DNA from: Chara braunii
Taxonomy: Eukaryota; Plantae; Charophyceae
Direction: 5' to 3'
Assembly: GCA_003427395.1 (NCBI GenBank)
Contig: BFEA01000016.1
Coordinates: 969,712 to 1,033,711, forward strand
Length of the DNA: 64,000 nucleotides
Under the pieces are notes generated by a model. It was not told where the DNA came from, searched no databases, and was given only the letters and a program-made list of their open reading frames with translations. Position 1 is the stretch's first letter; every line of letters begins with the position of its first letter. The position numbers were made by a program, and so were the translations under genes. Shown here piece after piece: positions 11,836 through 59,040 of the stretch.

Positions 11836-11837
11836 CC

Positions 11838-20059: not shown

Positions 20060-20852
20060 CTACAACATTCTACTTAGAAACAATATCAAGTTTTTGTCTT
20101 TATTTATAAACAAAACACGTGGCACGATAAAATTTATCTCTTCATTGGGCATATGGCTAAGCCATTCAACTTACAAACCCTGCTTAATCTCCCTGAACCA
20201 TTTAATATCCAAGTTATATATAGCTTTATGCATTTAGTGATCAAAGGTGAACGTATGACTAAACCATTCAACTTAGAAACAAACGTTCAGTCTGCCTGAA
20301 TCGGACCTTTTGATTATACTTTTAATTAAGTACTCTCTTCTTTTAGTGATAGGCTATAGTCAGACCATTCAACTTAGAAACTTTGTCTGACTTGCTGGTT
20401 CATATAAAATATATAACATACAATATAGGAAGAACTATTTTCATATTTTTCTATTTGCGTGCGTGACCTCTCAAACTAAGTCATTCAACTTAGAAACAAT
20501 ACTTAGTCCTAACCTCAATTCCTTTAGAAAGAAACACATAAAGAGTTGAGTCATTCAACTTAGAAACAAATACTTAACCCGTTCCTTCAAAATTCAAAGA
20601 AAAGCAGGGGTCCTATACCATTAAACTTAAAAACAAATGTCAGGGCCTGTTCAGAAACCTCCCCAAAAAGCAGGTAGACCAAGTCATTCAACTTAGAAAC
20701 AATCTTTGGTCGAGAAAAACAATCCATTCATGTCCTCAAATCAAAGCCACAACGACCAGACTATTTAACTTAGAGGAATTGTCTAACCTATCAGAAGACA
20801 GAACAAAGAAACATAGCAGTTCGACCATTCAACTTAAGAACAATGCCTAACC
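20060..20852 (-). repeat. Hairpin array, loop type 1 (10 units)
   Basis: Same loop with changed but paired stems, e.g. GTCAGAC..GTCTGAC, ACTAAGT..ACTTAGT, GACCAAG..TTTGGTC. Confidence 0.9.
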
Positions 20853-21590
20853 GTTTGTACAATCCACAATCTAAACCACCTTCCCCCCACCTTCCCTTCA
20901 ATTCATCCCTCTTCCACTCCGAGTTTCAAACAAAATAAGAAAGTAAAACTGAATTTTTGTGCACGTGTTCTTTTACTTTACTTTGAATTCAGTTCAGAAA
21001 GTCAAACAGTAAAACTTGGCAGGGACGCATGCATTCATATTGAGACAATCATAAAAGGATGTAAACATAAGGGCTTTATGTGAGTTTATCAAAAGTAAGG
21101 GTGATGTACCTCTCATTTCTCTGCCTATATCTCCTTTTGAGTTTTGACAGAGCTCCCTCAATCAATGGGTAGACCTTCTAAAAGGTTTTGTTGCGGTCTT
21201 GTGGGTTGCAATCCCACTTGCCGCCTTCCTTTCGTAACCGCATATTAGACATAGAGTAAGAAGGGCAGAAAGGAGGAGTCTCAGACACTCGAGATACAAG
21301 AAGGGGACAACTCAACTCGCGCGAGAGAGCCTTGAAGCCTTCAGTCACCTGAGGGCCCCGCAATGGTGGTCAAAACGCTTAGAAGCCGACAAAAACACGA
21401 CTGACTCACAGCAACAGTCTCCTTTGAAAATACAATAGTTGCACAAGATCAGGAGGAAGCGTCGACACCTTGAGACCACAATTGTTGTTGTCAAGACTAG
21501 TGGTGCTTAGTAAAGGCAAAATGTCGCAATTGTCCATTGTTACCTCGACAGGCTAAGCTTGAAGTAGCAATATTTGTCTTTGTAACAAAC

Positions 21591-27741: not shown

Positions 27742-29253
27742 AATGTGATGATCACTTCTCACAATCACAGTGTGATTCTTCTCATCCATACATATGTATG
27801 AGATCACAAACAGTCAAATCCAGAATCCGAACCATAAAACATACTTGCAATCACATCAAGGATTCAACCAAAAGTCCACGCACAACATGGGGTCAACTTC
27901 AACCAATCTCTGCACTCATACCCCTTGCTATAGCCATGCAAGCCCCAACCTTTATCCAACCTTCCATAATTAAATACTGAGTACCTTTGTTAAATGACCA
28001 TTCAATAAAACCCTGGGTGAATAAAACAAATCAAAACCACCGTGCCAAATCCTTTAGGTTGAGTGGCGAGAGTGAAATGAAGTTGAGTCATAAACCGACG
28101 AATCGGCAACCGGCTTGTTATCAGTGATAACGGAAGATGATCCTCGTGGGATCAAGCTGAATCTAGCTCAAATCCCGAATCAAGCGATCAAGAGGACCTG
28201 AAACACAAGACAAACCAATCCCCAGACTAAATCTATAAGTCTATGGAGAATAATTTTCATATCACGATCTCACTCAAACATCGTTCTTAATTAACTAAGT
28301 CAAAATCTATCCCTAAGCAGATACCTAAAGAAAAGGTAGATCCTGGTCGGATCTCCTCTATACAGAGTAAATCTCCAGAATCGCCACCTGTCAAAATATA
28401 ACCTATCTCCTTGAAACTAGGAAAATTTTGGCAGCACTTCCTGTACGAAAAGTGCCTTTTCAGAATTAATACTAGCTTGAATATAAAACTAAAATGTTCC
28501 ATGACTCTGGAAAGTTCAATTTTGTCTACCTCTCTGAATTAATAAAAAATTAGACAGCACTCCTTTCAGAAACGGAAACTTCCCAGATTTATACTAAGTC
28601 GGATATGAAACTCAAAAGCAGAACTTGAGTTCAACTAAGATAAAATTTAACTAGCCTCTAGATATGTAAAATTTGGTCAGCACTCCTTTTAGAAAATGAG
28701 ACTTTCCATATTCATACGAAGCTAAGTTCAGAACCTTAAATAACTTTGATTTCTCAAGGTCCAATTTTGTTTAACTCCTTGATTTAAGAAACATTTGAGC
28801 AGCACTCCCTTTAGAAAATGTGACTTTCCATATTTTTACTAAGCCATTTATAAAAGTTAGATAAGCTGAACTTTGAAGAGACAAAATCTAACTAACTACT
28901 TGGTTTTGTAGAATTTTCGGCAACGCTTCCCGTAGAGAAAGTAACTTACCAATATTTATACAAGACCAAGTATAACAAATGATCCTAGAAACTGCAGGAA
29001 TTGACCTTCGTAAAATAAACCTAGCTAAGAAAATACGAAAATTGAACGAACTTCTATTGCTCTAGCACATGACAAGCAACTAAAGCAACTACCTATCAAC
29101 TGAAACTCAGACTAAGTAATAGTCTCACTCAACCACATGCAAGACCAAATGACAAAGGGTAAGTACTCTCACCATTCCCAAGTCGAAGTCCTAATAGATA
29201 GTTCATTAACTTTCAGATGATTTAACCCTTATACCAAAATTACATATGACATG

Positions 29254-30011
29254 ATGCTAGACCATTCAACTTAGAAACAATGTCTAGCATGCCTTTAGAA
29301 TATACACGAACAGGTTGCACAACTACTTTTCTCTTCTTTGGACATATGACTAGACCATTTAACTTAGAAACAATGTCTAGTCGCCCTGAACTGTTTAATA
29401 ACCAAAGTTCAATAATTTCTGACTTTGTTTTCAAAAGGAATGAAAATATGGGAGGGGACTGAGCCATTAAGCTTAGAAACAATGCTCAACTTGCCCAAAC
29501 TACTTCCAATTATACTTCGTAATTTACCTTCTCTTCTTAATGATATGGCTTAGCGCTGGACCATTAAGCTTAGAAACAATGTCCAACTGCCAGTTCTCAT
29601 GCAAGTATAAATAAAGTACTTCCTGTTATACTCAGTTTATACTTATGTGCGTGGTTTTCAGGCTAAACCATTAAGCTTAGAAACAATGCTTAGCCTTAGA
29701 CCAGAAATCCTCCCTTAAAAATAAAACAAAAGGTTGAACCATTCAACTTAGAAACAATATTAATTCTATCCTCAAACCATTCAAAGCATGAAGTTGGATT
29801 TTTCCACCCAACTTCAGCCAGAAACCCCAAAAGAAATAGACAGACCAAGCCATTCACTTAGAAATAATGCTTGGTCCCGAAAATCAGCCAGACAAACCCT
29901 CAAAAATAAACATAGCAACCAGACTATTCAACTTAGAAACAATGCGTAGTTCTTCAAAAAACAGTCAAATAAACATAGCCCTGGGCCATTCATCTTAGAA
30001 ACAATGCCCCG
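29254..30011 (-). repeat. Hairpin array, loop type 1 (9 units)
   Basis: e.g. ATGCTAGAC-CATTCAACTTAGAAACAAT-GTCTAGCAT and GACTAGAC..GTCTAGTC. Confidence 0.9.
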
Positions 30012-30513
30012 TCCTTGGTTGACCCGGTCGAACGCATACAAACCGCCTTCCTCCCACATTCCCTCACTTCATCCCTAAGTCTGCTTTCAGTTAAAACAAA
30101 GAAAAACTTAAGCTTTCCACACATATTCCTTCCATTTAGTCCAATTAACTCCTAAAAAGAAAGCAAGAATCATAGCGGAACACATACATACAACAGTCAA
30201 AGCTAGAGGAAGATAGTCAAACATGGGTATAGTGGGTTCACACAGTCAGAAGGTGGTATACCTGTCAGTTCCCTGCCTCTAAAACCTCGCCTCGGTTCCG
30301 ACATAGCTCCCGCAATCGGTGGGTTGATTCCCTACAGAGTCTTGCTACGGTCCTACGGGTCACAACCCCGCCTGCCGCCTTCCTCTCAGAACAAGACTAG
30401 ACTTAGAGTAAGAAGGACAAAAAAAGAAGTTTCAAACGCTCGAGATACAAGAGAGGGACGAACTCAACTCCCAGGAGACGGCCTCAAAATCTTCGTGCAC
30501 CTGAGGGTCCCGC

Positions 30514-32240
30514 TGTGGGGCGGCTGCCTACCAGCCGAGTGCACCCCTTTGACAAAACATGACCTTTTGGAATGTTTTCCTTGTTTTTGCATGTTTTGGT
30601 ACCTGGATGCATGAGGCTTGAGGGGTTTCTTTTGAGGGAGGTGGGTTTTCTTTTATTTTTACTAACGGTTGCGCGAGCAAGGAAAAGGACAGCAGACGCA
30701 AGGTCTCAAAAAGGGCCTAGAGCGGACTAAGAGTTCAAGATTTCGGCACGACGCGTGAGAAGCGAAAAGAAGGCGGCAGTCGTTGGGACTAAGGGTGGAA
30801 GGCTGGGAAGAACCAGGTACAAAGTTGAGTCGGGTGCCTTGGCTACGAGACAACTGGTACAGAGGGGGGGCCTCAATTAGGCTGGCCCAAGGGGACTACG
30901 GGATACCGCCCTGGCCGTCGCGCCGAGGATGAACTTGGTGTGATGCGGCTGGCCCGATTGGTGCGGCATGGCCAATTCCGGCCCGAGCATCACGACACAA
31001 TCCGACGAGATGGGAAGGGCGGATGATCCCTGGTCTAGTCGATGTGACCAAGGGGGATGGGATGATCGGCAGGTGTAGGGATCGAGCTGCAAACCGAACC
31101 ATGCAAAAGGTGATCGGGCGAATCTTACGGATTGCTGACCAATCGAAGCAAAGGGGGAAGGAGGAAGAGGCCTAGAGAAAGAGGGAGGCAATCCAAAGGA
31201 ACGAGCGGAGCGAATGAGAAACTATGGCGCAGAAAACCGACTAGCATCGAGAATGTCGAGCGACCGAAGCTAAAGGCAAGTGAAGGCTACTGCCGGGTCA
31301 CGACAACCTAGATCACTCTTGACGGACGACGGCCGAGCAGTAGCGTGGGGCCATCCGTGAGAGCACGAAGTAAGCCAAAATGATAATTTGAGAAAATTTG
31401 AGCAATCCCTCAAAGGGGGTGGCCCCTCCTAAGCTAAGAGGCCCCGTACTTTTTGCTTGTTTTACAAAAAAAAAAAAAAAAAAAAAAGGGGAGTGAAACT
31501 GAGGGGAAAAGTCGGTGAGGTGATGAAGACTGCCAAGCAAGAGAACGGAGGAGGTGCGTGAGAAGATCGGATACCCCCGGGGCGAATTTAGTGGGGCAGA
31601 TGCGAAAAGGACGAGAGGAGCCACGGGCGCATTCCCGGAATGACTCGGGCGGAGAAAAGGGCTGCGACCGCGAGAGCTAGAAGGAGCAAAGGAGGGAAAC
31701 AGGGGAGTAAGAGAGGGTAGTGCCGCCGAAATCAAGAAGATGTGGACGAGCTGGAATGGTTGAAGAAAGGAGCACGTGCACACCCTTCTTGATAACCGAA
31801 CGGGAAGTTGGTGGCTCAGGGACAAGGAATGGGGTGGGCACAACCTAAGAGAGGGTGAGAGAGCTATGAACATCTGAAGGTAGAATGTGAGGGAAGCTTG
31901 GTGGATTGGGCGGGAAATTGAAATTTTCATAATAGTTTGAAATTGGCGCCGGAAGAACTCTGCAACCAGCTGAAGGAGGAGCCGAAGGGCAGTAATTCGC
32001 CGGGACTGAGGAAGGGAGGATCGGCGAGAGAGGGCTCTTGTCCGAACAAAGAGTACATGAAGGGAGACAAGGAGGAGTACAGGGGGAGAGTACGGAGGCG
32101 TCCGGAGCGACTGTGCGTACGTCGCCGAACTAGTGCACCGTGAGCGGAGTAGAGAGGGGAGGGAGTCAGGGTGTACGAGGATGCGAGCGCCAGTAGCGCC
32201 CGACAGTTCTCACTAACGCTCGAGGTCGAGCTAACGACCC

Positions 32241-32324
<84 letters not shown>

Positions 32325-32406
32325 NNNNNNNNNNNNNNNNNNNNNNNNNNNNNNNNNNNNNNNNNNNNNNNNNNNNNNNNNNNNNNNNNNNNNNNNNNNN
32401 NNNNNN

Positions 32407-32475
<69 letters not shown>

Positions 32476-32521
32476 GGGGACAGGGTGCGTCCGGCGGCTG
32501 AGAGATGGGAGGGTTGTGACA
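30514..32521 (+). repeat. 5' LTR of the plus-strand Gypsy
   Basis: Matches 46364-48187; contains a long (GA)n and a gap. Confidence 0.9.
32245..32471. repeat. (GA)n microsatellite spanning assembly gap 32325-32406
   Basis: Direct reading. Confidence 0.95.
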
Positions 32522-33467
32522 AGGGGCATCGGTTCTCGACCCACGCGGGTTGTGTACGGGGCCCGCTAGAGAGACGCCTCCCGCGAGGGAGCGAAGTTCT
32601 CAAGCGGGGGCCGTTCGGGACGTGGGGGTAAGGAGAGTGGTGCTTCGGGTTCCGGGGCAAGGGGGCGAGGAAACCTCAACCACCATTATTAACGAAAGGG
32701 ATAGGGGGCTACCTCGGGAAGAAGAGGCTAGAGACACGTGGGGTACCTTGGAAGAGGGATCGGAGGACGGGTCTTGGGTGCATCGGTGCCTTGCCGATTT
32801 CTCGGACTCGGACCTAGGGGATTACTGGGACTACGAGAACGAATATTGAAGGATTCAAGGACCACAAGGTACGTATAAGCGGCTGCTTAACCTGGGAGAC
32901 TCTTCCTAGAACTCTACTATCCCATCCTTTTTCTCTCCTAACACCCTGATTGAATTCTTTTGATTCCAAGAGAGAAAAGAGTCAGCCGGTGGCGAAAAGG
33001 GAAGAAGGGAACGAAGTGAGAAGGGTTCACGATGCGAGAAGGAGAATGGGAGGGAATAGACAGGCTAGTGATATCGGATCGATAGGCGGATAAAGTCCGG
33101 GGACCCGGGTAATTCCACGCTCGAGGTGGGCCGAGCAGGGGCGTGGTTTCGGATAGGCTAACTTAGGACTAGGGGTCGGTTCAGTGGGGGACATAGGGCA
33201 CGGGTGTGAGACTGCGGTCCGACTCCGGAGGAGGGGTTGCCACCCTTCTTCGAGGATAAACTGTGTTCGCGGCTAGTCCTTATAGCTGGAAGTGGGAGGA
33301 CCTCTCAGCGGGGGAGGACAGGAAGGTAGCCGAGTGAGACGGCGTTCCTTCTCTGGTCCATTTGATCCTGCTGGGCTCACAGGCACCTTTTTCTTGCAGG
33401 GTAGGGGTGGTCTCTCGAATGGCCAAATAGTAAAGAGGACAAAATTATCTTTCTTTGATTAGTGTGA

Positions 33468-33821
33468 ATGAGCCTAGCGGCGGTCCCGGAAGGGATTAGT
33501 GTGAGAAGTCACAGTGGGATCGACGTGTGGTGCTATACCATCTGTCTGTGGACGGGGGATTTCGACGTGGCCATCTATGTAGAAGAAGGGCGAGATCGGG
33601 GGGAGAATTTCCTCCGCGGATGGGAGGAGGCAGTACGCAACTCTCGGGCGGAAAAAAGGGAGCTGCGAGGGTACGGGTTTAGATACTTTTATTCACTAGG
33701 GTACCGGATTTATCCTTGGGGGGGGCAACCCGCGCCGGTGATTCCGGACGCCTATCTCGACGGGTCGGACGGGTGGAGAATACTAATCACGATCATAGAG
33801 GAGATAGTGGGGCGCACATAA
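33468..33821 (+). CDS. Accessory ORF A1 (117 aa, unknown function)
   Basis: Intact ATG-to-stop ORF; clear tandem paralog immediately downstream. Confidence 0.75.
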   Translation: MSLAAVPEGISVRSHSGIDVWCYTICLWTGDFDVAIYVEEGRDRGENFLRGWEEAVRNSRAEKRELRGYGFRYFYSLGYRIYPWGGQPAPVIPDAYLDGSDGWRILITIIEEIVGRT

Positions 33822-34183
33822 GCTTAGGGGTTCTGGAGTTTGAACCGGTAGGCATTAGCGTGGGAAGCCATGGGGGTGTAGACGTGTGGTGCTACAACTT
33901 TTACCTGTGGACTGGGGATTTCGATATAGCACTTTACGTGGAAGAAGGGACTGACAAAAGGGAAACCTTCCTAAATAGTTGGGAAGAGGCGGCTGACCAT
34001 TCTCAGCTAGAAAGGGAGCTGTTAGGGCACTACGGGATTAAATATTTCTATAGTTTGGGGTGTCGAACCTTCCGGCGAGGGGAGCAACCTGCCCCAGTGC
34101 TACCGGAGGCATATCTGGATGGGTTAGACGGGTGGAAAGTGATAGTGGCTATTATAGAGGAGATTGTAGGTCTAGGGATTTGA
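33818..34183 (+). CDS. Accessory ORF A2 (paralog of A1; start codon appears as ATA)
   Basis: DVWCY..LWTGDFD.A.YVEEG..WEEA..YFYSLG..QPAPV.P.AYLDG.DGW..IIEEIVG shared with A1 despite many third-position differences. Confidence 0.75.
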   Translation: MSLGVLEFEPVGISVGSHGGVDVWCYNFYLWTGDFDIALYVEEGTDKRETFLNSWEEAADHSQLERELLGHYGIKYFYSLGCRTFRRGEQPAPVLPEAYLDGLDGWKVIVAIIEEIVGLGI

Positions 34184-34240
34184 ACCGGCAAGCGTGTTTC
34201 GTGGGGATCATTAGGGAGGTAGTGCAGGGCCAGGAGGGGC

Positions 34241-34983
34241 ATGGTTAGGATTGTGGAAGCAGCAGAAGGCGGCAGGGTAAAAATCGAGAGGGTTGACCTT
34301 CTTAGAGAACGAGAATGCTTTAGTGTCCTCTTGGATCATCGTACGGAGAGGTACCTAGCTGGGCGTGAGAGAGGGGTGAAGCTTGAGAAGGGTGTCTTTC
34401 TTTGGGCACGATTCGCCGTAGGCATTTGGGAAGGAGATCGGTGGACCAGGAATAGACCTAGGAACGGGCGGAAGGCCCGGCGAGCGGCAGTTCGTGCCGA
34501 GGCACGGTCTATCTAAGTCGAGAGGCGTGGGTTGAGTACGTCACCCACTGGGCCTTAGGGTGGTATCGGCCGGACCACTGGGAGTTACGCGCGGGCCCTA
34601 TCCTGAGGCGGATCTTCGAGGAGGTGCCCCTTCAGCATAGCCTGCCGTTTCGCTTGCGGGTGACTTGCGCTCGGGACGAGGAATACCCTCGTGCCGCGGG
34701 TTGCGTCCAGGTTATATTTCCTTCTTACGTCTTTAGGAGGGTCTGTGGAGAGGGGACCGCGTACGAGAAGGTAGTGAGGTCCATTAGGCGTGAGAGAAGA
34801 AGAGGCCTGCCCTTTCGTTCGCTCCATTGGTTCTGTTCCTATTGTATGGACAACCCGGTTCCGTACGGGGTTAGAGCGGATCGGATCCGGAAAAGGATCT
34901 CTCTGGAGTTGGGAAGAGACCGTGAGGGCGGGCGAGACTACCGTTACCAAAGGGTATTTTGGGTACATCAAAAGGTAGGATAG
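34241..34983 (+). pseudogene. Accessory ORF B1 (one frameshift near 34440-34500)
   Basis: GVFLWAR, RGTVYLSREAW and GLPFRSLHWFCSYCMD align with B2/B3. Confidence 0.65.
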
Positions 34984-34988
34984 AATGA

Positions 34989-35675
34989 ATGGTTCTATTT
35001 GACCGGAGTGTCGGTAGGTTCATTGAGTCCCCTCTAGGCGAGCGAGGGGTGTGCAGCTTGGTTCCGAGCAACGGAAGAATCCCCGATTGGAGAAGATTAG
35101 AGGGAGGAGAGATTACGGCCGAAGGAAATTTCGTGTGGGTAGAATCGGAGGAAGAGGAAGAGAGAACGGTTGAGGTGCGTCTTAACGTCACCTCGATAAT
35201 CTTCGTCAAGCCGGAGGCTTGGTCGAAGATTATTGTACCCCTGGTCTTGGGCCAAGGGGGTGGGCTGGACTTGTTAATCAGGGAGACTAGCGAGGTCAGA
35301 AGGAGGTGGATAGATAGGTTCCGAAAGGAGTTTGAGTTTGTGGCAGTAGAGGCGGAGAGGTTCGCTAGGGCAGGCGAGCTCCCAAGGGCAAGTTAACTCG
35401 TGACCATATGGGTCCTGGAATTTGTGTTCCCGAGTGAGAGCGAGGGCAGAGTGGTGAGCCTCCTAGAAAGAGGAAGGAGTTTGGGATTACCCTTTGGGGC
35501 CCTGTGGACACTGTACACGCATTGTATCGATCAGGGAATCCCGCCACGCAGGAAACTTTGGGGTATTTTTAGGAGATTAGGGTCCCTGGAAAAACCCTTT
35601 ACCCTCTCACCAGAAAGATACCGCCGGTGGGTTTTGAAAACGGCGTCGGTAGATGGTGAGATTTGTGCTCAGTGA
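34989..35675 (+). pseudogene. Accessory ORF B2 (in-frame TAA at 35394)
   Basis: ORFs 34989-35396 and 35400-35675 are in frame; GNFVWV, IIFVKPEAW, FARAGELPRAS, LWTLYTHCIDQGIPPR. Confidence 0.7.
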
Positions 35676-36354
35676 GAACGGGGCGGTAGAGGCAATAGAG
35701 GCCAGTGACGCGGGCAAAGTCTTGATCCCAGGGGACCCTCACGTGACGCCCTACTGGATGAGCGTTGAGAAAGGCGGAGTCATCCTAGGAGGCGCCTACG
35801 TGTGGGTTCGACCTCGCAGGCTTACCTGGAAAGAAGGAGTGCAAAGAGGAGGTCCGCCTGACCTCGGTCGGTTCTTAGAGATTCGAGCTACGATCTTCCT
35901 CAACGAGGACACATGGACTGAAGTGTGGAGGGGCTTAATAATCGGTCGAGAGACCCATACGGAGTACCGTGAGTCCGCGAGGCTGATAGTAAACAACCTA
36001 GTACTGAGTGATTACGAAGAGGGGACCTTCGAGTCGTGGACGCAGGTGTCCTTCGCCAAACCATGCGAGGTCCCTCGCACGTCCGGAGACCTCCACGCGG
36101 AGCTGCCCCAATTCCTGACACGCTCATTCTTGAGAGACCCGGAGGAAAGAGTGATGGCGGTACTTAGAGTCGCTCGAGGATCCGGAGTGCAGACAAGAGG
36201 GTTGTTCTGGATCTACACGCGGTGTGTAGACGCTGGGGTTCCCCCTAGGGGAGAACTATCCTCTATATTCGAGAGATTGAGAGAGTTTGAGGGAGTCCGA
36301 GCTCACGTCGCGAACGTCCCGTACACGCCTCTTTGGGGAAGAGCAGGTGGCTAA
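35653..36354 (+). CDS. Accessory ORF B3 (233 aa, intact)
   Basis: GAYVWV, TIFLNEDTW, FAKPCEVPRTS and LFWIYTRCVDAGVPPR parallel B2. Confidence 0.75.
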   Translation: MVRFVLSENGAVEAIEASDAGKVLIPGDPHVTPYWMSVEKGGVILGGAYVWVRPRRLTWKEGVQRGGPPDLGRFLEIRATIFLNEDTWTEVWRGLIIGRETHTEYRESARLIVNNLVLSDYEEGTFESWTQVSFAKPCEVPRTSGDLHAELPQFLTRSFLRDPEERVMAVLRVARGSGVQTRGLFWIYTRCVDAGVPPRGELSSIFERLREFEGVRAHVANVPYTPLWGRAGG

Positions 36355-36569
36355 CCGGCGGGGGTACGAAGCTCGATGATAAGAGGGATTTCAGGGACTC
36401 TTTGGGCCTCAATAGAGCCTGTGAGCGGGGAAGGAGAGGTTGTCCACGTCTCATTGCCCAAGGAAAGTCAAAGGGATCCTACAAGGGTCATTCGAAGGGA
36501 AGTAGCCGAGATCCGCCAAGGGAGAGCATTCATTCGGTTGACAGTGAGCAGCGGAGAGGGGTTGGTGGT

Positions 36570-37529
36570 NNNNNNNNNNNNNNNNNNNNNNNNNNNNNNN
36601 NNNNNNNNNNNNNNNNNNNNNNNNNNNNNNNNNNNNNNNNNNNNNNNNNNNNNNNNNNNNNNNNNNNNNNNNNNNNNNNNNNNNNNNNNNNNNNNNNNNN
36701 NNNNNNNNNNNNNNNNNNNNNNNNNNNNNNNNNNNNNNNNNNNNNNNNNNNNNNNNNNNNNNNNNNNNNNNNNNNNNNNNNNNNNNNNNNNNNNNNNNNN
36801 NNNNNNNNNNNNNNNNNNNNNNNNNNNNNNNNNNNNNNNNNNNNNNNNNNNNNNNNNNNNNNNNNNNNNNNNNNNNNNNNNNNNNNNNNNNNNNNNNNNN
36901 NNNNNNNNNNNNNNNNNNNNNNNNNNNNNNNNNNNNNNNNNNNNNNNNNNNNNNNNNNNNNNNNNNNNNNNNNNNNNNNNNNNNNNNNNNNNNNNNNNNN
37001 NNNNNNNNNNNNNNNNNNNNNNNNNNNNNNNNNNNNNNNNNNNNNNNNNNNNNNNNNNNNNNNNNNNNNNNNNNNNNNNNNNNNNNNNNNNNNNNNNNNN
37101 NNNNNNNNNNNNNNNNNNNNNNNNNNNNNNNNNNNNNNNNNNNNNNNNNNNNNNNNNNNNNNNNNNNNNNNNNNNNNNNNNNNNNNNNNNNNNNNNNNNN
37201 NNNNNNNNNNNNNNNNNNNNNNNNNNNNNNNNNNNNNNNNNNNNNNNNNNNNNNNNNNNNNNNNNNNNNNNNNNNNNNNNNNNNNNNNNNNNNNNNNNNN
37301 NNNNNNNNNNNNNNNNNNNNNNNNNNNNNNNNNNNNNNNNNNNNNNNNNNNNNNNNNNNNNNNNNNNNNNNNNNNNNNNNNNNNNNNNNNNNNNNNNNNN
37401 NNNNNNNNNNNNNNNNNNNNNNNNNNNNNNNNNNNNNNNNNNNNNNNNNNNNNNNNNNNNNNNNNNNNNNNNNNNNNNNNNNNNNNNNNNNNNNNNNNNN
37501 NNNNNNNNNNNNNNNNNNNNNNNNNNNNN
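36570..37529. other. Assembly gap
   Basis: N run. Confidence 1.
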
Positions 37530-38504
37530 TTCCCTATTGACTTAGTGCCTTCAGAGTCCATACGAGGACATTTGGTCGTCACTAGAGGGTCTGGGCTACG
37601 CCTTTGAGGGTTGGGGCCAACACGTAAAAGTCTCGACCATCACCTGAAGATACTTGGGCAAAATCTGTGAGGCGGGATTAGAAGGGTTAGACCCTTCGGA
37701 TCTCATACGGATAGCTATAGCATGCCGACGGAGGAATTTGAGGCATGAGTGAGCCCGACATCGGTGAACTGGTGGGTTTATAAAGGGTTAGGGCAGAGTT
37801 ATACCGAATATTGGCCCTTTGCTGAGAAGAGGAAAGGAGGGCGAGGCCAGGAGCCTTACGAAGGATCAAGTTGTTAGAGACTACCACGATAAAAGTACTA
37901 GATGACTTAAAAGAGGAACTACTCTCCGAGAGAGGTGAGGCACGAGAGCTACCTACACCTCAAACTCGATAAATTGGGAGTTGGAGACAAGGGACGACGG
38001 CCCCGAGGTCGAGATAGTAGGAGGAGCGAATCTTGGGCCAGGCCTTGGAGAGGACCAAGTGGTTAGAGCCAAGAAGAGCTTCCTCGTCGAGGTCCTGCGA
38101 CTGACCTTGTAGAAAAGGAGGTCCTGGACTACCTTAGCGAGGTTTTTGATCGCTATTAGGGGGGCGAGAGGGGTACGGTTCTCTAGGACGTGGAAAGAAC
38201 CCCTGTTGGAGGTCGAGAGGAGGTTCGAGGAGGACTCTAGGTGGCTTGGAAACCCACTCGAGGCCAGGGTGCACCTAGTAGAGGCGCGTTTTTGGGACAG
38301 GTCGGTTGAGTACGAGCAAACGTTGCATCGGGCAATACTCGAGCAGGGCGAACTTGAAGGCTCTCGAGAGAGGTGTGAGGACTCGCTAGTCGAGGCAGCA
38401 GAGAGGTTAGCTCGGGTGAGGTGAGTCGGCCACTGATTAGGTTCGACTGGGGAAACCCTGTCGGAATCTTGGAAAGAGCCTAGAAGTCCAGGTCCAGGTA
38501 TGGA

Positions 38505-39290
38505 GTGACCCTCCCCAAGGTTGAGAAAGAAGGGGAGATCACCACAGAGTTCTTTGAAATATACGGGCAAGAAACACAAGTCCGTTTCTCAATAATCTCA
38601 AGGGACGGTACACACACGCGAAGAGCAGAGATCTTTTTGTCTCGCGACGACAGACAATTCTTTGCTACCGAGTTGGCGGAAGGAAAGGACCCTCTGGGCA
38701 TCGCGGAGAAAACCCGGGACCGACTTAGAAGGTTGAGAGGAGGAGTAGCAGGAAGGCGTGAAATAGAAAGGGTTGAATACCGAGGACGGTTAGAAATTCC
38801 GCGAGCAGCCCACTGCCGGAACTGAGAAGTTCCTGCTTGGGTCTACCGTTTGCTCTACCCTGACGACGCGAGCGTGAGGAGGGTTCAAATTAGGGGACCG
38901 ATAATCGAAAAATTCCCCCTAGGTGAAGCGAAGGGGCACGAGCTGTTTACCCTGTGTTGGGAATCCCTAGAGCTCACAAACTTTGAATGGTGGGCTTTGG
39001 TCGGTAATTTCATCAAGCCCCTGTTCTCAGGACAGGCCGGAGAAGTAGATAGAGGCCTGATTAGGCGGTGCTCGCTGGAAGGGATTAGGGGTGTCTCGGA
39101 TCTAGAAATTGCCAACCTTGCGCTAGCAGCTTGCGAAGAGAAGAAAGTGCGAGACTCCTGGTGGACTGTGACTAGCGATGAGTCCGAAGGAGATAGTGGG
39201 ACACAAGGATCGAGTGAAGGAGAAAGAGGCTCGGAGGAGAGTAGTGGGACGACAAGCCAAGAAAGTGACTCTAGCGGAGAGAGAGACTAA
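38505..39290 (+). pseudogene. Additional accessory ORF before gag (~260 codons, in-frame TGA at 38823) with Ser/Glu-rich tail
   Basis: ORFs 38505-38825 and 38850-39290 share a frame and end 10 nt before the gag ATG; no recognised domain. Confidence 0.45.
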
Positions 39291-39300
39291 GGACTGGTGC

Positions 39301-41451
39301 ATGGAAAGTGTGGTGGAGCATGGGGTCGCCTAATCACCTAAGACCACCACTAAGGGGCGAGCTGAGGAAGGCGCCGAATTGGAGGCGAGATTGAGCAAGC
39401 CAGCCGAAGGAGTGACCGAAGGGGTAGAGGCTATGGACAGGGCCATAAGGAGCCAGGAAGAACCCCTCAGGGAGAAAGCTACGGAACCACGTGCGAGCTC
39501 GGACGAGCGTTTGCACCGAGAAATGGAGCCACGTGTACCTATGAGAGAGAGGACAACCGAAGCCACGAGGGGCTTCCCGGTCGAAACCCGATGGGCGGAC
39601 CACGGGGACACGGAAGAAAGAGTCGGCGAAGGGCAGGAGTGTCCCCGTAACAGGGCTGGATGCTGGGCACCAAGGAGAAGCGAGGAAGTAGACCCAAGAA
39701 GGAGGGAACTTGGGGACGGATGGCCAAACGAGATTGGGGGAGGACCGCGAAGATGGGCAGGCAGGGAAATCGGCCCCGCTTGGGCGCGAGAAGAGGTGGT
39801 AGGAAGGAATATGGAAGGACCCGGAGATATCTGGAGAGGAGCTAGGGCCCCGGAATCCATGTACTAGGAACGCGAAGATCTGGGTTATAGCGGTCGCAGG
39901 GAGGAGGAATCATGGGGATCTCCGAGACCTCGACCCCGGATAGAGGATTTGGACCCTTCCTGGTACAAACCTTACGATCCAGCGATAGATGGGCCGGCCG
40001 ATGGACCTTACTTCCGTCGGTATGACGATCGCCGAGTCCCTTATTACGATGTAAACCTAGGGCTCGATTCGCTCTATTTTAACGGAAGGTACGTGACCGG
40101 GTTCGTGAAAAAATGAGAGAGTTACGCCTACCGGAAAAAGTTTTCGGAAAAAGAGTGGATCGACGACTTCATACAGCATTTAGACCCGGAGCTGGACCAG
40201 GCCATCAGGGCCGTGTACCCGTCTGATGGAAGGTGGAAGACCTTCAAAAACAGCCTACTGAGGATCTTTGCGTGTGACGACATGATCCCCACGATAGAAG
40301 GGCTCCGTCGCGTGACGAGAGGAGAGCAAGAAAGCCTGGTGGCCTTTACTCGGAGGTTCAAACGCTTGTCCCAGACCTTAGTGGATAGAGGGATGCTTTC
40401 GGAAGTCGATAGGTGCGTGATGTTCATGTTGCACCTGCCTAAGGAGAAAAGGAGGGAGGTCCTCGAAAAGGCCCCTAGGAACTCCGCAAATTTCGAAAGG
40501 GTCGTCGAAGTAGTCTTCACTGGAGGAGGTGTGGATGTACGGGAATATATGAAGGAGAGTTTAGACATGACACTCCGGAGTATACGCTCCCAAGAGGGCG
40601 ATGGTCCACGTGGAAATGAAAGGCAGCCTCCGGGGCCTCCCGCCCAACGCTGGGGAGGAGGACCCCCGGGTTGGCGGAACGAACCCGACAATCAAGTGAA
40701 CTGGAGGACCGATCGAGAGGCCGGGGGGAATCGAGCCTCAAAATGGGGAAATTCCCGATGGAAGGATGCAAGGGATGGAAGATGGGGAAACCCTCCTCAA
40801 CCTAGGGCCATGGGGGATCGACCAGAGGAAAATCAGGCTAGAACGCCACCGCCTCCCGGGCCTTCCGGGACAGCGGAAGCGCCCCCTTAAGTCGCTCCCC
40901 GCGCTAACAACCCGCCGCCTCGAAGCGGGTGTGTCTATTGCAATGAGAAGGGTCACATCAAACGAGAATGCCCTTACCGTACGGAAACCCTAAGGTTGGG
41001 AGTAGTAAAATTAAATGAGAATAAGTGGGTAGTTTGGGGGGACGATGGGGAAGCAGTCTCCTTCTATCCCTCCATGAAGGTGAATGTGGACAAGAGGATA
41101 GCCCTCCAAGAGGCAAGGCTGGGAAAGAAGCCCGAGATTGGGGGTACCTCCAACTCATCCCATGTCCAAATGACAGAATCGCCAGGAGGCGTGTCCATAA
41201 GGGAACCCCAGGTGTCGAGCATCAAGTTCGTTGAGACCCAGCCTGAAGAGGAAGGGCCTTGCCTAAGAGTAAGAACCCAAGTTGGGGCCGGGCCGTCCAA
41301 AGGCAAAGAAAGCGCGACGGAGGGTAGAGGAAGAAGGAGCGGTGACGACGACCAACCGATGGTCGACGCCAAAGGCACGGAAGAAAGAAAGGGGAAGAAC
41401 CCACTTCACCTAAATCCCCTAGGAAGAGGGGGGCGAAAAAGTTCGAGATGA
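39301..41451 (+). pseudogene. gag: gag with in-frame stops
   Basis: One frame from ATG 39301 with stops including 39331, 39865, 40114 and 40888; capsid-like GEQESLVAFTRRF; knuckle CVYCNEKGHIKREC at 40930. Confidence 0.85.
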
Positions 41452-44400
41452 AATGTACCTTAGACGAAATAGACACGGTAGCTCCCCTACGGAGGACCCT
41501 AATGCAGCCTATGCAGTGCACCCTTCTGGAGTACTTGGCGGCCAGCAAGAGCGCTAGGGAAGAGCTCCTAAGCATCACAAGGAAAGTGAGAATCCCGTTC
41601 ACGGGAGGACCCACGGTTACGGGGGATGGACCTGCCAAAGAAAAATTGCAGTACTCTAGGATCACTATGGAGGAATTGCCGGCGAATTTCTTATCGGGAG
41701 AAGAGGCCAAAAGGTTCTATGTATTAGGGAGCGGCCAACTCCAGGCAGTGGTGAGTGGAAAAAAGATGAGGGCTCTGGTGGATAACAGGTTCGAATCCAC
41801 GGTATGTAGAGACTCCATTGCCCGGGAGTTAGGTTTGGAAGTAGATAGAGGGGTGTCGATGTCGATGGTCGTAGCGGATAAGAAGCTACAGCCGGCAGAG
41901 GGGGTGTGTCACAACCCCATGATTGAGGTCGCCGACGTCGAAGCCACAGTCCCAATATTCTCGGTAAAAGAGTGTTTCTCCGAGTTGATCCTCGGAAGAA
42001 CCTGGCTGAGCGCGGTCCACGCTACCACGGTTGACCTACCAGATGGGAGTCAGACTCTCTCGATCCAAGGTCCGGATGGAATCCGAGTCGTCCTAAAGAC
42101 CGTGGACGCTCAAGATGAGCGAAACCGGACCAGCATTCCAAGGCGGAAGAAGGCCCAGTCAAGGGTGTGCCAATTCTGTCTAGAAGAATCACCCTTTGCT
42201 GATAAGGAACCCCCGGGGGACCGATTGGATGTCGAGGATGTCGGGGGCAGGGTCGTGATCAATGGGGTAGGGTACGAGAAAGAGGACGAGGAAGAGGAGT
42301 TCGGTGGGTGCGTAAGGCTGTCTTTTTTGGAGGAATCCCCCTAGCCGGCGGAGTCAAGAAGCATAAAACCGTGGCGGAGAAAGTAAAACCCGCTGCGGTC
42401 AGCCGGAATAGAACGGGGGAAACTTCGATATCGGAGGAGGAAATCGCCGATATCATCCGAAAAAGGAAGGAGACCGAGGGACAAAGAATTACGGCCGATA
42501 GGTTGGCAAAGATGGATATAGGGGATGGGAACCTCACGAAGGAGGAGAAGGAGTACGCAACAATGACCCTGAGAGACTGCGATAAGGCTATAGCCTTCGA
42601 TGACTCGGAGAGAGGGAGGATCGACCCGAGGTACGCTAAGCCCGCCCGGATCCACACGATCCCTCATGTATCTTGGAAAGATAGACCCCAATGGAAGTAC
42701 ACTCAAAAGGAGAAGGAGGAGATAGTGACCTTTATCAAAGAAAAGATAAGGACGTTCGTCACGGAGCCTTGTGAAAGTGCCTACTCCAATAAATGGTTCT
42801 TTCTGAGGAAAGGGGGTAGCAACAAGGTGAGGTGGATTCAGAACCTCCAAAGGACCAACGCGGTCACTATAAGGGACGTGGAGTCCAGACCTGAGGTTGA
42901 TCTACTTGCGGAAGGGTCGGCAGGTCGCTCGATCTACTCGATCTGCGATTTCTTCTCGGGCTATGATGAAATCCCCTTGGACCATCGTGATAGATACATG
43001 ACCGCTATGCATACGCCTCTAGGGCTGGTCCAAATGATGGTGGTACCGATGGGGTGGACGAACGGCGTCGCAGTATTCCAAAGGACCATGATCGCGGTCC
43101 TCAAAGAATTCATACCAGAGAATGTGGAAGTCTTCCTTGATGACTTCCCGATGAAAGGGCCGGTCGAAAAGGATGAGACGGAGGTCTTCCCCGGGGTGAG
43201 GAAGTTGGTGGTGGACCATATGAAGGATGTCGGGGAGGTCCTTGCGAAATTAGATGACGCCAACCTTACAGTGAGTGGGACGAAGAGCCGCTGGGGAGTG
43301 TCGTCGATCAAAATATTAGGCTTCATCTGTGACAAGGATGGGCGGAGGCCCGACCCCGCGAAGTCAGAAAAAATGATGGTCTGGCCTTCGCCATTAAAAT
43401 CAATAACGGAGGTTAGGCAGTTTTTAGGGGTGGTGGGCTACTGGAGGATCTTTATAAAAACCTACAGTGAGAAGGCGGAACCGCTTAGACGACTGCTTAG
43501 AAAAACGGAAGGGTGGACCTAAGGAGAAGAACAGACCTCGACCATGAAAACCCTTAAAGAAGAATTCTGCGAAGGAGGGCAGGTCGTAGGCGTCCCTTTC
43601 TTCGAGGACGAAGAGAACCGCCCGTTTATAGTTGCTACGGACGCTGGACCGTGCTCCGTAGGTGGGCTTCTGTCCCAAAGAGATCAAAACGGGAAAGAAA
43701 GGCCGCTTCGGTTCGAGAGTCGGGCCTTAAACCCCGCCGAGAGGAACTATAGCCAATTCAAAAAAGAAGTGCTGAGGGTGTTGCACTGCCTAAAGACCTT
43801 CCGCCACTACATCTACAGGAGGCGTTTCCTCCTGAGAGTGGACCCGACCGTGGTAGCGGTTGTCCTTCAAAAGAACTTCTCGCTAACCGACCCGACTATC
43901 GCTAGATGGATGATCCATATTAGACTCTACGATTATAGGGTCGAGAGGATCTCCGGGGCCAAAAATCAGGTCGCCGACGAACTATCCCGACTCCCGATCC
44001 GGGAGGAGGGTTATCCGAAGTTGGAGGAAGCAAGGGCAGCGATGTCCGAAGAGGAGGTGATCCGAATGGCTGCTAACAACGCACAAGTGGGGGTGACCAT
44101 CCGGGAGAAAGATAGAAGCCCTGGGACGTTCTTCGCTAACTTCTATGACGGGAAGTACCGTGACATAGGGTTGTACCTAGCAGGCAAGGGGGAAGGTACC
44201 GAGGTGATTAAGAAAGAGGCGCTGGGGTATTGCCTATGAGAAGGGCACCTCTTTAAGAGGCCTACCAAGTTTGCAATTCCCATGAGGGTGCTTTGCGATC
44301 CGGAGGAAAGGAAGACAGTTATAGAACTACACGACGAGGTCGTCGGAGGGCATAGAAGGGTAAGAGGGACCTTTGATAAGGTCTGTAGACTTTATTGGTG

Positions 44401-45959
44401 GGATGGACAGTACGGAGAAGTAGATAAGTATTGTCTGACCTGTGAGGTGTGCCAAAAGAGGGCGACAATTCACTACAAGGAACCCCTAGTTCCGTCGCTC
44501 CTCACTGTGCCCGGCGAAAAAGTCCATGTTGACCTAGTAACCATGCCTAAAGGAGTCAGCGGGCTTCGGTACATAATCAATGCCCGCGATGACCTAACCA
44601 GATCCGTAGAAGCTAAGGCTATTAAGAAGAAGACGGCCGAGGAGGTGAGTGATTTTCTCTTGGGGTACATTGCCCGGTACGGTTGTGTCGGAAAGATAGT
44701 TATGGATAGGGGGTCAGAATTCCTTAGTCGAAGGGTCAAGGAGATATTAGAGAAGGGAGGGATTAAGGCGGCCTATACGACCGCCTATCACCCCCAAAGC
44801 AACATTCCGGTCGAAAGAGGTCACCAAACCCTTGTAGAGGCCTTGGCAAAATTGTGCAAAGGACGTGCGGAACAATGACCAAAGTATTTGCGCTATGCAG
44901 TTTGGGCGGATAACATGACAGTCAAATCAAGTACTGGGTATCCCCCCTACACCCTTTGGTTCGGTAGACACGGCCCACTACCCATCCAGTTCCACGTCGA
45001 CACCTGGACGAGTGTCTCGTGGGAAACCAACATAATAAGGTGCGAACTGTTGGAGGCAAGGATCCAACAAATAGTCGAGAATTTGGACGTCGGACTTGCC
45101 GAGGCAAGAAAAAACATCGAGAAGGAGAGGGTGAAAGGGAAAGAAAGGTGGGACAAGAATTTGCGGGTCCAGCAAAAGCCAATAGGGACCAGTGACCTAG
45201 TCCTAATGAACGACTCATCGCTAGAAAAGACATAGAGCAGAAAACTGGCCAACCNNNNNNNNNNNNNNNNNNNNNNNNNNNNNNNNNNNNNNNNNNNNNN
45301 NNNNNNNNNNNNNNNNNNNNNNNNNNNNNNNNNNNNNNNNNNNNNNNNNNNNNNNNNNNNNNNNNNNNNNNNNNNNNNNNNNNNNNNNNNNNNNNNNNNN
45401 NNNNNNNNNNNNNNNNNNNAACGACTCATCGCTAGAAAAGACATAGAGCAGAAAACTGGCCAACCGATGGATGGGGCCGTACCGAGTCCTAAAGAGGTTG
45501 GATGGGACTAGATTACGAGACCCTGTCGCAGGGGCTCGTCTCAAACTCTTTCGATGGCGAAGGACACTTAGGGAAGAAACGAAAAGGAAGGACAAGGAAG
45601 CAGTCGACGCGGAAGTGACCCCTGAGAAAGGAGAGACTTCGAAACAGGGAGCCTCTTCTCGGCCGCCTAGGAGGGGGTATAAGGTTCGGAAACCTCCCTT
45701 GCCAAAGACCCCCAAAAGAAAGAAGCGGCCAAGGGAGAACGACAGTGATGTCGACCAACTAGGAAAACGCAGGATAAGGGAGAGAAGGGACGCTTCAAGG
45801 AAAGCCTTGAGGGTCAAGCGTGAGAGAGAAGAGAGGAAGAGAAGGAGAGAGAGGCTCGCGAAAAATACGAGGAGACGGAAAACAGGAATAGAACCGCCTG
45901 GGAGAAAAAGGGGGGGGCAATGTGCCATAACTAGAGAGAGCATGTGTAGTAATACCTAA
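41448..45959 (+). pseudogene. pol: pol: aspartic protease, RT, RNase H, integrase with GPY motif and basic tail
   Basis: PR ALVDNRFE..LILGRTWL; RT DFFSGY, PMGWTN, VFLDDF; RNase H TDAG..ERNYS; IN HHCC, VHVDL, MDRGSEF, VERGH; WMGPYRV; stops at 43520, 44237, 44876, 45233; frame change near 42310-42340. Confidence 0.95.
45255..45419. other. Assembly gap with overlapping contig ends
   Basis: The same ~46 nt appear on both sides of the N run. Confidence 0.9.
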
Positions 45960-46363
45960 AAGGGCGAGGTGCTATGGTTAACGAAAATATACTGTACCAT
46001 AGTTAGAGAAAACATGTGTCATAATGTCAAAAGGGAGCTGTGCCTTAGGGGTGCTGTACCATAGTTAGAGGGGACGTATATCATAGTTTCGGAAGTTAAG
46101 AAGAGCATGTGTTGTAGTTCCAACGGTAGGGAAAAAGGGGGACTGTGCCAAGATGAAGCAATATGGTTTACGAACCAAAAAGTTAAGTCCGGTAGGAAGG
46201 GGAAAACGAGGGATGAACGTAGTCTAACAAGGCAAGGGCTAATGCGAACCATGGGAACGCGAAAAGTACGTTAAAGGGATAACCACTGGGAATGGGGAAA
46301 AGGTTAAGAAAAGGGTCATGGGGAAGCTCGCCGGGGACGGTGAGAATTGAGGTGTGGGCTGGT

Positions 46364-48187
46364 TGTGGGGCGGCTGCCTACCAGCCGAGTGCACCCCTTT
46401 GACGAAACATGACCTTCTTTTGGAATGTTTTTCTTGTTTTTGCATGTTTTGGTACCTGGATGCATGAGGCTTGAGGGGTTTCTTTTGAGGGAGGTGGGTT
46501 TTCTTTTATTTTTACTAACGGTTGCGCGGGCATGGAAAAGGACAGCAGACGCAAGGTCTCAAGAGGGGCCTAGAGCGGACTAAGAGTTCAAGATTTCGGC
46601 ACGACGCGTGAGAAGCGAAAAGAAGGCGGCAGGCTTTGGGACTAAGGGTGGAAGGCTGGGAAGAACCAGGTACAAAGTTGAGTCGGGTGCCTTGGCTACG
46701 AGACAACTGGTACAGGGGGGAGGGCTCAATTAGGCTGGCCCAAGGGGACTACGGGATGCCGCCCTGGCCGTCGCGCCGAGGACGGACTTGGTGTGATGCG
46801 GCTGGCCCGATCGGTGCGGCATGGCCAATTCCGACCCGAGCATCATGACACAATCCGACGAGCTGGGAAGGGCGGATGATCCCTGGCCTGGTCGATGTGA
46901 CCAAGGGGGATGGGATGATCGGCAGGTGTAGGGATCGAGCTGCAAACCGAACCACGCAAAAGGTGATCGGGCGAATCTTACGGATTGCTGACCAATCGAA
47001 GCAAAGGGGGAAGGAGGAAGAGGCCTAGAGAAAGGGGGAGGTGATCCAAAGGAACGAGCGGAGCGAATGAGAAACTATGGCGCAGAAAACCGACTGGCAT
47101 CGAGAATGTCGAGCGGCCGAAGCTAGAGGCAGGTGAAGGCTACTGCCGGGTCACGACAACCAAGATCACTCTCGATGGATGACGACCGAGCAGTAGCGTG
47201 GGGACATCCGCGAGACCACGAAGTAAGCCAAAATGATAATTTGAGAAGATTCGAGCAATCCCTCAAAGGGGGTGGCCCCTCCTGAGCTAAGAGGCCCCGT
47301 ACTTTTTGTTTGTTTTACAAAAAAAAAAAAAAAAAAAAAAGGGGAAGTGAAACTGAGGGGAAAAGTCGGTCAGGTGATGGCGACCGCCAAGCAAGAGAAC
47401 GGAGGAGGTGCGTGAGAAGATCGGATACCCCCGGGGCGAATTCATTGGAGCAGATGCGAAAAGGACGAGAGGAGCCGCGCGCGCATTCCTGGAATGACTC
47501 GGGCGGAGAAAAGGGTTGCGACCGCGAGAGCTAGAAGGAGCAAAGGAGGGAAACAGGGCAGTAAGACAGGGTGAGTGCCGCCAGGATCAAGAAGATGCGA
47601 ACGAGCTGGAACGGTTGAAGAAAGGAGCGTGTGCGCACCCTTCTTGATAACCGAATGGGAAGTTGGTGGCTCAGGGACAAGGAACGGGGCGGGCACAGCC
47701 TAAGTGAGGGAGAGAGAACCACGAACACCTGAAGGTAGAATGTGAGGGAAGCTAGGTGGATTGGGCGGGAAATTGAAATTTTCGTAAAAGTTTGAAATTG
47801 GCGCTGGAAGCACTTTGCAACCAGCTGAAGGAGGAGCAGAAGGGCAGTAATTCGCCGGGATTGAGGAAGGGAGGATCGACGAGAGAGGGCTCTAGTCCGA
47901 ACAAAGAGTATAAGAAGGGAGACAAGAAGGAGTACAGGGGAAGAGTAAGGAGGCGTCCGGAGCGACCGTGCGTGCGTCTCCGAACTAGTGCACCGCGAGC
48001 GGAGTAGAGAGAGGGGAGGGAGTCAGGGTGTATGAGGATGGGAGCGCCAGTAGCGCCCGACAGTTCTCACTAGCGCTCGAGGTCGAGCTAACGACCCTCC
48101 AAGAGGTAGTGAGAGATAGAGAGAGAGGGAGAGCGAGAGGAGGGGGATAGAGTGCGTCCAACGGCTGAGAGATGGGAGGGTCGTGAC
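46364..48187 (+). repeat. 3' LTR of the plus-strand Gypsy
   Basis: Matches 30514-32521. Confidence 0.9.
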
Positions 48188-49314
48188 AAGGGGTGTTGGA
48201 ACAAAGCTCGAGGCGCCTACAACGGTGGCGCTTGGGGCGGATGAAGGTGAGGACCTGCGCGCACCTTGAGGAACGCTTAGCGTGCATAGACGAGAAGACG
48301 ATCCGGAGAGGAGACCTTATGAGTGGAACGACGACACCAAGAGCACCGGAGTGGGGGGGAAGACTCATGAGGAAGGAAGAAGTTTATGTAGAAGCGGGCG
48401 CCCTCAAAGATAAGGTGATTTGTCGGGTAGTCTCCGACGGCTAAGGCCTTTTGGGAGCCTTCACACACCTGGGCGACACTCGAGCTCGCGGGAAGATCTC
48501 GCCATGTAGGTGGGAGGAGGCGGTGAAGCGAGGGAAGAGAAGCGGAAGTTGGCAAGCTAGGGGAGGGGTGAGGAGCTAATAGTCGGTCGGAGAGGAAGAG
48601 GGAGAGAGGAGGGCCAGCCACCTTCGTCCTTCCAGTCGCTCGTGCTTCACGGGATCGACTCAAATGTGAAAAGGCGCGAGCTAGGAGCACCATTGCAGAC
48701 ACGCGGAGGGGAACTATTTGGGCTCGCACGTCGAAGGAGACAGTCTGTAGAGAGCATCCGCACGACGATCGATTCCGTTCGCCTCGGAGGCTGGCAAGTG
48801 GCTGCTATCAACAACATCTGAACTCCGTCGTCTTTTAGCTGGCTGGTTTCTGCGAACATCCGAGGATCAGCTATTGTTGACGACTGGTCCACGGTTCAAA
48901 CTTAGCCGTCTCTGCTTGTCCCGCTTGTGCCAGGCGATCTTTCTGCCAAATAAGAACGGGGAGGGTCACGCTCCGTTCGCTGTGAAATGTGGTTGGGTCC
49001 CCGTGGGTATCCTGCGCCCCGAGGTCTCGGGCTCCTCGATCGGTAAGCATCTTGTCATCGCTCTATAGGATCGAAACATCCCTCTCTTTTCCTGCGCCAC
49101 GATCTTATGGGACTTGCCCACCTATGCAAAGCACAGAGACAAAAGAGAGCGAAAAAGAGTGAAAGAGAGAGAGAGAACGAGAGAGAAAGAGATGAAGAGA
49201 GAGAGAGAGAGAGGGTGAGAAAGAGAGAAGGAGGGAAAGAGAGAGGCGTAGCGAGGAAGAGACAGAGGCCGCATCGACGAGGGAACCGACTAAGCTCGGG
49301 TCTCCGCAGAAGAC

Positions 49315-49780
49315 CTGGACTGCCTTTTCGACTTCGTTTCGGTACTTGTTTTCTGAGTCGTAAGTACCTGGTTCGGTCTTTGGAGAAAGTGCATCTTAAT
49401 GTGTGGCTCGATCTAGACTGCCTTTCGACTTCGTTTCGGTACTTGTTTTCTGAGTCGTAAGTACCTGGTTGGGTCTTTGGAAAAAGTGCATCTTAATCTG
49501 TGGCTCGATCTAGGCTGTCCTATCGACTTCGTTTCGATACTTGTTTTCTGAGTCGTAAGTATCTGGTTGGGTCTTTGGAGACGGTGCATCTTAATCTGTG
49601 GCTCGATCTGGACTGCGTTTTCGACTTTGTTTCGGTTCTTGTTTTTCTGAGTCGTAAGTACCTGGTTCGGTTTTTGGAGAAAGCGCATCTTGATCTGTGG
49701 CTCGACCTGCACTGCCTTTTCGACATCGTTTTTCCCTTGAGTCGTAAGTACCAAGTGGAGTCTTCGCAGAAGGTGCATCC
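49315..49780. repeat. ~98-bp minisatellite (~4.7 units) between GA-rich tracts
   Basis: Units start at 49315, 49413, 49510, 49608, 49707 with constant TGAGTCGTAAGTA. Confidence 0.9.
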
Positions 49781-58719: not shown

Positions 58720-59040
58720 CGAGGAGCAGTGTAAACCTTTCTCAAAGGTATAACATCTTATTCCTTGAGCCCCGCTCATGAATCAAGCCTCAGTGCATCT
58801 GCCTCCGATTACAACACTTGCACCTTGTAGACCCTTGCCGATAAAATATACAACCTCACCATACATACTCCGGGATGATCTGTCCCTTCGAATGCAGATG
58901 AACCTACTTGACGCAAAAGTAGTTGGGGATTCACCCCCTACCTCTCTGTGGCAGGTAGTAGCCGCCTCCCCCAAAGGCCATGATCTGACACAGTTCAAAC
59001 ACTTTCCTCCTATTCGGTAGTAATATAGTCCTTTTACCAC
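58720..59040 (-). pseudogene. Accessory ORF (A-like) of E2
   Basis: Protein-level match to 10075-10400. Confidence 0.6.

Follow-up and report, generated by a model that had tools for sequence, protein, structure and literature searches.

Introduction

Additional open reading frames (ORFs) are reported to be common in long terminal repeat (LTR) retrotransposons, where they lie mostly 3' of pol, are of unknown function and have been likened to retroviral accessory genes (PMC7264820). A survey of Ty3/gypsy elements sorted such extra ORFs into 314 groups, counting only those of at least 250 codons (PMC6317226). Ogre elements (OTA/Tat; Neumann et al. 2019, PMC6317226) are large Ty3/gypsy elements with sense-strand coding sequence apart from gag-pol, comprising one or two extra ORFs that often carry a plant mobile domain (PMD; PMC6431247) and whose products are lineage-restricted and fast-diverging (PMC6317226). 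Retroviral accessory genes and CERV of Cer1 encode small, lineage-specific, non-enzymatic products beside gag-pol, for which the management of host interactions has been proposed or shown (PMC7264820, PMC10309623). VANC, an accessory family of the VANDAL/Mutator transposable elements (TEs) that diversifies between TE lineages, is PMD/MAIN-like and belongs to DNA transposons (PMC13547354). Here we describe a 64,000-nucleotide stretch of the Chara braunii genome (contig BFEA01000016.1, positions 969,712 to 1,033,711; hereafter the window) in which a plus-strand Ty3/gypsy element carries a cassette of at least eight ORFs upstream of gag, five of them encoding paralogs of a single protein family, here called B.

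The Chara element resembles Ogre in its size, its sense-strand extra coding sequence and the restricted, rapidly diverging products of that sequence, but differs in having at least eight upstream ORFs, five of them paralogous, with no PMD and no additional RNase H match. Family B is comparable to the retroviral accessory genes and CERV in the kind of product encoded and to VANC in its diversification between lineages; unlike the former it forms a tandem paralog array placed wholly upstream of gag, with no sequence or fold link found, and unlike the latter it has no PMD match and its element lacks a short motif array. In caulimoviruses, too, a single reverse-transcribed RNA carries several closely abutting ORFs ahead of capsid and pol, translated by reinitiation, but these upstream ORFs are not known to be paralogs; the Chara element differs in having LTRs and an integrase, and the searches made gave it no movement-protein or transactivator match.

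The paralogy of the B ORFs, the anatomy of their cassette, purifying selection and a spread over two reverse transcriptase (RT) lineages and one pol-less element are shown by the data. The accessory family is real and selected, it appears not to have been described before, and its paralog cassette is unusual. We are highly confident in this descriptive part, namely that family B is an accessory family of Chara Ty3/gypsy elements with five selected-for paralogs in a packed pre-gag cassette. No published account of it was found in the literature searched, subscription papers and repeat databases lying outside that search.

Five paralogs in a packed cassette

The original prediction, drawn from the sequence alone, held that three tandem, highly diverged paralogs sharing four motifs occupy 34241-36354, and this was borne out. 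B1 (34241-34983), B2 (34989-35675) and B3 (35653-36354), all on the plus strand, share 25-29% protein identity, and their Smith-Waterman scores (160 for B3-B2, 95 for B3-B1b and 78 for B2-B1b) each exceed all 500 shuffles, while the window self-comparison shows no DNA similarity among them. All four motifs, G-x-[FY]-[VL]-W, [IV]-[FY]-[LV]-x3-[AT]-W, PR[AT][AS] and L-x2-[LIF]-[YC]-x2-C-x-D-x2-[IV]-P, are present in each copy; across six frames of the whole window three of them have only 3-4 matches each and PR[AT][AS] has 11. Only B3 (233 amino acids) is open among the three, the window copy of B1 having a frameshift near 34500 and that of B2 an in-frame stop at 35394-35396. Chara gene models provide orthologues of B2 (P0001, P0002 and P0004, 56-61% identity) and of B3 (P0127, 82%; P0003, 77%).

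The triplication upstream of gag that had been described proved to be part of a longer array of five, in which B4 and B5 had been missed. B4 (36376-37749, plus strand) is interrupted by an assembly gap of 960 N (36570-37529), on both sides of which residues 631-876 of P0128 can be mapped; because P0128 spans the gap with about 110 residues, less DNA is probably missing than the gap suggests. With the family profile, which it had joined in the course of iteration, the B4 domain of P0128 reaches 103 bits; it shares 30% identity with B5 (E 1e-9). B5 (38433-39290, plus strand) has an acidic tail and stops at 38481 and 38823, and together with its orthologues (P0006, P0010, P0130 and P0142, 59-63% identity) it reaches 20-22 bits in a leave-out profile test in which the best shuffle scored 8.3. 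Since the P0128 domain is a family member and B5 scores when left out of the profile, the element contains five B paralogs.

Two further, unrelated families complete the cassette. A1 (33468-33821, 117 amino acids; orthologue P0008, 79-82% identity) and its tandem paralog A2 (33845-34183, start not fixed) are 62% identical, both acidic and about 115 amino acids long, and differ mostly at third codon positions (28/24/60 differences by position); neither has a Pfam match. ORF C (37969-38424) contains one stop (38110-38112) and has orthologues within P0002 and P0018 (60-65% identity). All three lie on the plus strand, and hhalign comparisons of A and C with B were not significant. Gene-model orthologues map onto every ORF upstream of gag. 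From A1 through gag the junction gaps are 23, 57, 5, -23, 21, 219, 8 and 10 nt, the starts of A2 and C being approximate, and five of the eight junctions are tightly packed (5, -23, 21, 8 and 10 nt). Judged from this arrangement, the layout is operon-like. The ATGs at 34241, 34989, 35653 and 39301 are preceded by purine-rich runs resembling AGGAGG, AGGA or GGTAG, which may be due to chance as the strand is G-rich. In the leader just upstream of A1 (32868-33399, plus strand) a donor-like and an acceptor-like site lie about 530 nt apart, near 32868 and 33399; no spliced read across them was found among the RNA reads examined.

Tight packing would also suit a different role for the paralogs, as subunits of one element-made structure. 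This could be a hetero-oligomeric shell, matrix or tubule that surrounds Gag particles or the sites of replication and perhaps serves for shielding or for passage between cells, with the tight ORF spacing setting the subunit ratios. We consider this unlikely, although it fits both the packing and the retention of a B ORF in the pol-less element described next.

A divergent member in a pol-less element

A copy with the same motifs had also been placed on the minus strand at 8970-9524. Its membership in the family holds, as does the sharing of B with the minus-strand repeat family, but the motifs do not, as this member (E1; 8970-9548, minus strand, 5' end broken) matches only one of the four. 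Compared with the window sequences only, E1 gave a borderline E of ~0.1; it reached E 9e-6 within the window after homologues were added, and scores 38.6 bits with a profile from which it had been left out, compared with 8.6 for the best of 1000 shuffles. It lies upstream of a gag-like CCHC remnant (7646-8275, minus strand; C-x2-C-x4-H-x4-C) that has no Pfam match at E 0.1, and between long repeats that are 87% identical; comparison with 124 proteins revealed no pol match. Flanked by repeats and carrying B and CCHC ORFs in the absence of such a match, the E1 element looks non-autonomous. A decayed copy proposed at 11100-11356 was not recovered, the best frame scoring at most 0.1 bits with two profiles and matching none of the motifs.

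The surrounding minus-strand family (3-17351) is pol-less and has LTR-like repeats of about 4 kb containing tandem units of 245-250 bp, with related pieces at 19222-21377, 27927-30513 and 56499-61519. In a second internal copy (56499-59287) nothing matched the gag-like and B region.

Distribution and phylogeny

A profile of three sequences retrieved four proteins among 1.84 billion representatives, namely three Chara braunii models and one 90-amino-acid record. With 12 sequences, a search restricted to lengths of 421-2000 scored 7994 candidates and retrieved 38 proteins, every one a Chara braunii gene model. Local iteration identified 58 B domains in 45 of 159 proteins compared, and 32 of these 45 carriers also match the gag, RT, RNase H or integrase of the element, the pol match of P0130 deriving from another element. 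As automatic gene models splice neighbouring ORFs, these multi-domain entries reflect adjacency in the DNA rather than true fusion. P0001 (CBR_g40479), in which a DUF659 (hAT-like) piece is joined to a B2 domain, is most likely a chimera that annotation made from neighbouring elements. Family B is so far confined to Chara, a single algal lineage.

A second Gypsy lineage, whose RT is 47-56% identical to that of the window, carries four other paralog types before gag. A tree was built from 41 of the 64 rows, leaving out short and chimeric ones; in it each paralog type forms a clade, and the types of the window lineage are separated from those of the second lineage and E1, which groups with the latter (support 99/96; 98/97 with 20 rows after removal of the three longest). 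Independent paralog expansion in each lineage is therefore likely from these sequences, but not proven, as the groups were named after the first tree had been inspected and long branches meet. Two cross-lineage paralog pairings were rejected (p-AU 0.012 and 0.0001, approximately unbiased test).

Selection and expression

In one DNA sequencing run (X1), 2742 contigs align to 32600-36560, most of them 85-95% alike, indicating that many related copies exist; the depth of this run is not usable as a copy number. Across 270 nt of B3, the 31 listed variants comprise 21 synonymous and 10 non-synonymous changes, with no stops or indels. The synonymous share of 21/31 compares with 25-31% expected (p at most 3.3e-5), corresponding to a non-synonymous to synonymous polymorphism ratio (pN/pS) of 0.16-0.22. 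This agrees with the long-term selection that had been proposed, and none of the outcomes named as grounds for abandoning the original prediction, namely non-significant alignments, dN/dS near 1 or a known TE domain, was observed.

That the B ORFs are captured, functionless passengers copied with the element is thus very improbable. The idea draws on the three of five paralogs that are broken in the window copy and on the near absence of RNA in two of three runs, but gag-pol of the same copy is likewise broken, protein similarity of 20-30% persists among paralogs without DNA similarity, and no host-gene source for the family was found among the 1.84 billion representatives; it is the pN/pS of about 0.2 in B3 that leads us to reject neutral baggage. 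With 6-13% of each of the three runs examined, 2 RNA reads aligned out of 8.9 million, 199 out of 16.7 million and 3 out of 16.2 million.

Protein features and possible function

The domain could not be recognised, in line with the original prediction. Pfam contains no known family matching B, either for 26 window ORFs at E 0.1 or for 12 family members at E 1, and the same searches gave no match to PF10536, PF04195 or PF03078 (Ogre ORF1/plant mobile domain/Transposase_28/Athila ORF-1). PHROG and PDB-sequence searches yielded no family-B match, and structure libraries no clear fold match. The model predicts a two-domain fold, a curved antiparallel sheet with helices followed by a helical bundle. 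A Foldseek search of BFVD, directed at 30K movement proteins and viral capsids, gave nothing at E 0.001, with TM-scores by query of at most 0.25 among the best 50 matches, and the N-terminal domain of chimallin (PDB 7sqt), whose score lies within background at 8% identity or less, is a lead only.

Among 13 representatives the conserved columns are almost all glycine, proline, aromatic or aliphatic. P30, G99 and P143 are invariant, no D, H, C or K column reaches the conservation threshold, and E, R and S columns reach 60-70%. No catalytic or liganding residues are invariant across paralogs, and the Cys-x-Asp motif, which had been offered as a family hallmark, is limited to B1-B3 types. The highest 19-residue hydropathy is 1.38, and the B ORFs lie 5' of gag rather than in the env-like position between pol and the 3' LTR. 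Family B therefore shows no family-wide catalytic or membrane signature.

These features also bear on whether B proteins bind nucleic acids of the element itself, as VANC-like anti-silencing factors with sequence specificity or as Rev/CERV-like RNA export factors, for which CERV provides a precedent (PMC10309623). Residues 24-97 of the model run strand-strand-strand-strand-helix, the conserved aromatics W42, F/Y53, W55 and W89 look exposed, and B1 and one lineage-2 type are basic (isoelectric points, pI, of 10.0 and 10.8). This strand order resembles that of the PC4/PUR/Whirly single-strand binders; no such chain was among the structure matches listed, for which the whole model was the query, and the conserved basic residues that would be expected on the sheet of such a binder are absent. 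Most paralogs are neutral or acidic (pI 4.8-10.8 overall), a single K/R column is shared (8/13 representatives), no PMD or other Pfam match exists, and a crude test of the LTR and leader revealed no 8-mer array beyond the level of shuffles, the top count being 4 and the shuffle mean 3.5. One unit of a 98-bp tandem array and a set of repeats in the element's 3' untranslated part fold no better than shuffles (z +1.07 and +0.88). Nucleic-acid binding thus appears quite unlikely, and neither role originally suggested, hairpin partner or anti-silencing factor, is supported, given the lack of a conserved basic surface, of a short motif array and of unusual folding in these two regions.

We favour the reading that B proteins are non-enzymatic protein-binding modules diversified to engage host factors, to which we assign a probability of roughly 0.45. 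A scaffold that is conserved while its charge varies freely, and that has no catalytic set, suits a non-enzymatic interaction module, and repeated duplication with deep divergence fits a widening range of host targets. Under this reading, selection would preserve the common scaffold and leave the surfaces to diverge, and successive tandem duplications within each lineage would have broadened the range of host factors targeted, much as in retroviral accessory genes. Translation of the ORFs would proceed from LTR-driven RNA through stop-start reinitiation, or would use spliced sub-genomic RNAs. In Arabidopsis, the accessory proteins of TEs are reported to exceed the core enzymes both in predicted host contacts and in dN/dS (PMC13547354).

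Several observations weigh against this host-interaction role. The role is predicted, and no fold match indicates a function. The pN/pS of B3 shows purifying rather than positive selection and is drawn from a single DNA run and 270 nt of this one paralog. A pol-less element could drop a trans-acting host-interaction factor, yet E1 keeps an open frame of 192 codons. Beyond the three broken paralogs of the window copy, a fourth lies partly within the assembly gap, and the RNA reads fall on both strands with only 2 at 99% identity or better, so that expression is not established by them. A broader proposal, which we regard as somewhat unlikely, treats the Gypsy elements of Chara as virus-like retroelements whose accessory ORFs form a polycistronic operon. 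On this view a protein of new fold would have expanded independently into 4-5 paralogs per lineage, and these would either co-assemble a protective or transport structure or form a panel of counter-defence effectors.

The host element and its flanks

The element has an LTR pair (30514-32521 and 46364-48188, plus strand, in direct repeat; 94.2% identity over 1737 columns), the 5' LTR being of the form TGT...ACA and containing a GA tract with an N gap. A Pfam scan places CCHC gag, protease, RT, RNase H and integrase in that order at 39301-45960 (plus strand), as expected of a Ty3/gypsy LTR retrotransposon; several stops and frameshifts in gag-pol indicate a decaying insertion. Integrase directly follows RNase H in the pol pieces scanned with Pfam, with no additional RNase H of the Ogre/Tat kind. 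Chara braunii gene models match the RT at 85-87% identity, and its nearest named relatives outside Chara, among the best 120 of 135 matches, are from Rozella, Riccia and fungi (34-42%).

Both LTR copies end in TGACA followed by AGGGG (32517-32530; 48184-48197), and the LTR flanks do not match as a target-site duplication would. Neither a TGG-type primer site nor a self-priming site was found, no complement of at least 8 nt being present in the LTR. The G-rich skew runs on beyond the right LTR to about 50000, and this LTR may consequently head another internal region. The 98-bp array (49318-49731, 4.2 units) lies outside the 3' LTR, and the three degenerate repeats of 62-72 nt in the 3' untranslated part occupy 45920-46121 (plus strand).

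Implications

Plant LTR elements commonly have extra ORFs, and the surveys cited here describe one or two, unrelated to each other, in each element. The cut-off of at least 250 codons in PMC6317226 would miss most ORFs of the cassette, and the main text of that survey makes no mention of Chara braunii or charophytes. Here, in an alga related to land plants, one fold has been amplified into paralog arrays, apparently twice, within a cassette of operon-like layout. Family B offers a defined set of soluble proteins under selection, with a model that can be used to study the counter-host strategies of retroelements, and the cassette is useful for asking how one RNA of a eukaryotic element yields many translated ORFs. 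At least 45 'hypothetical' Chara gene models are explained as spliced pieces of retroelement cassettes.
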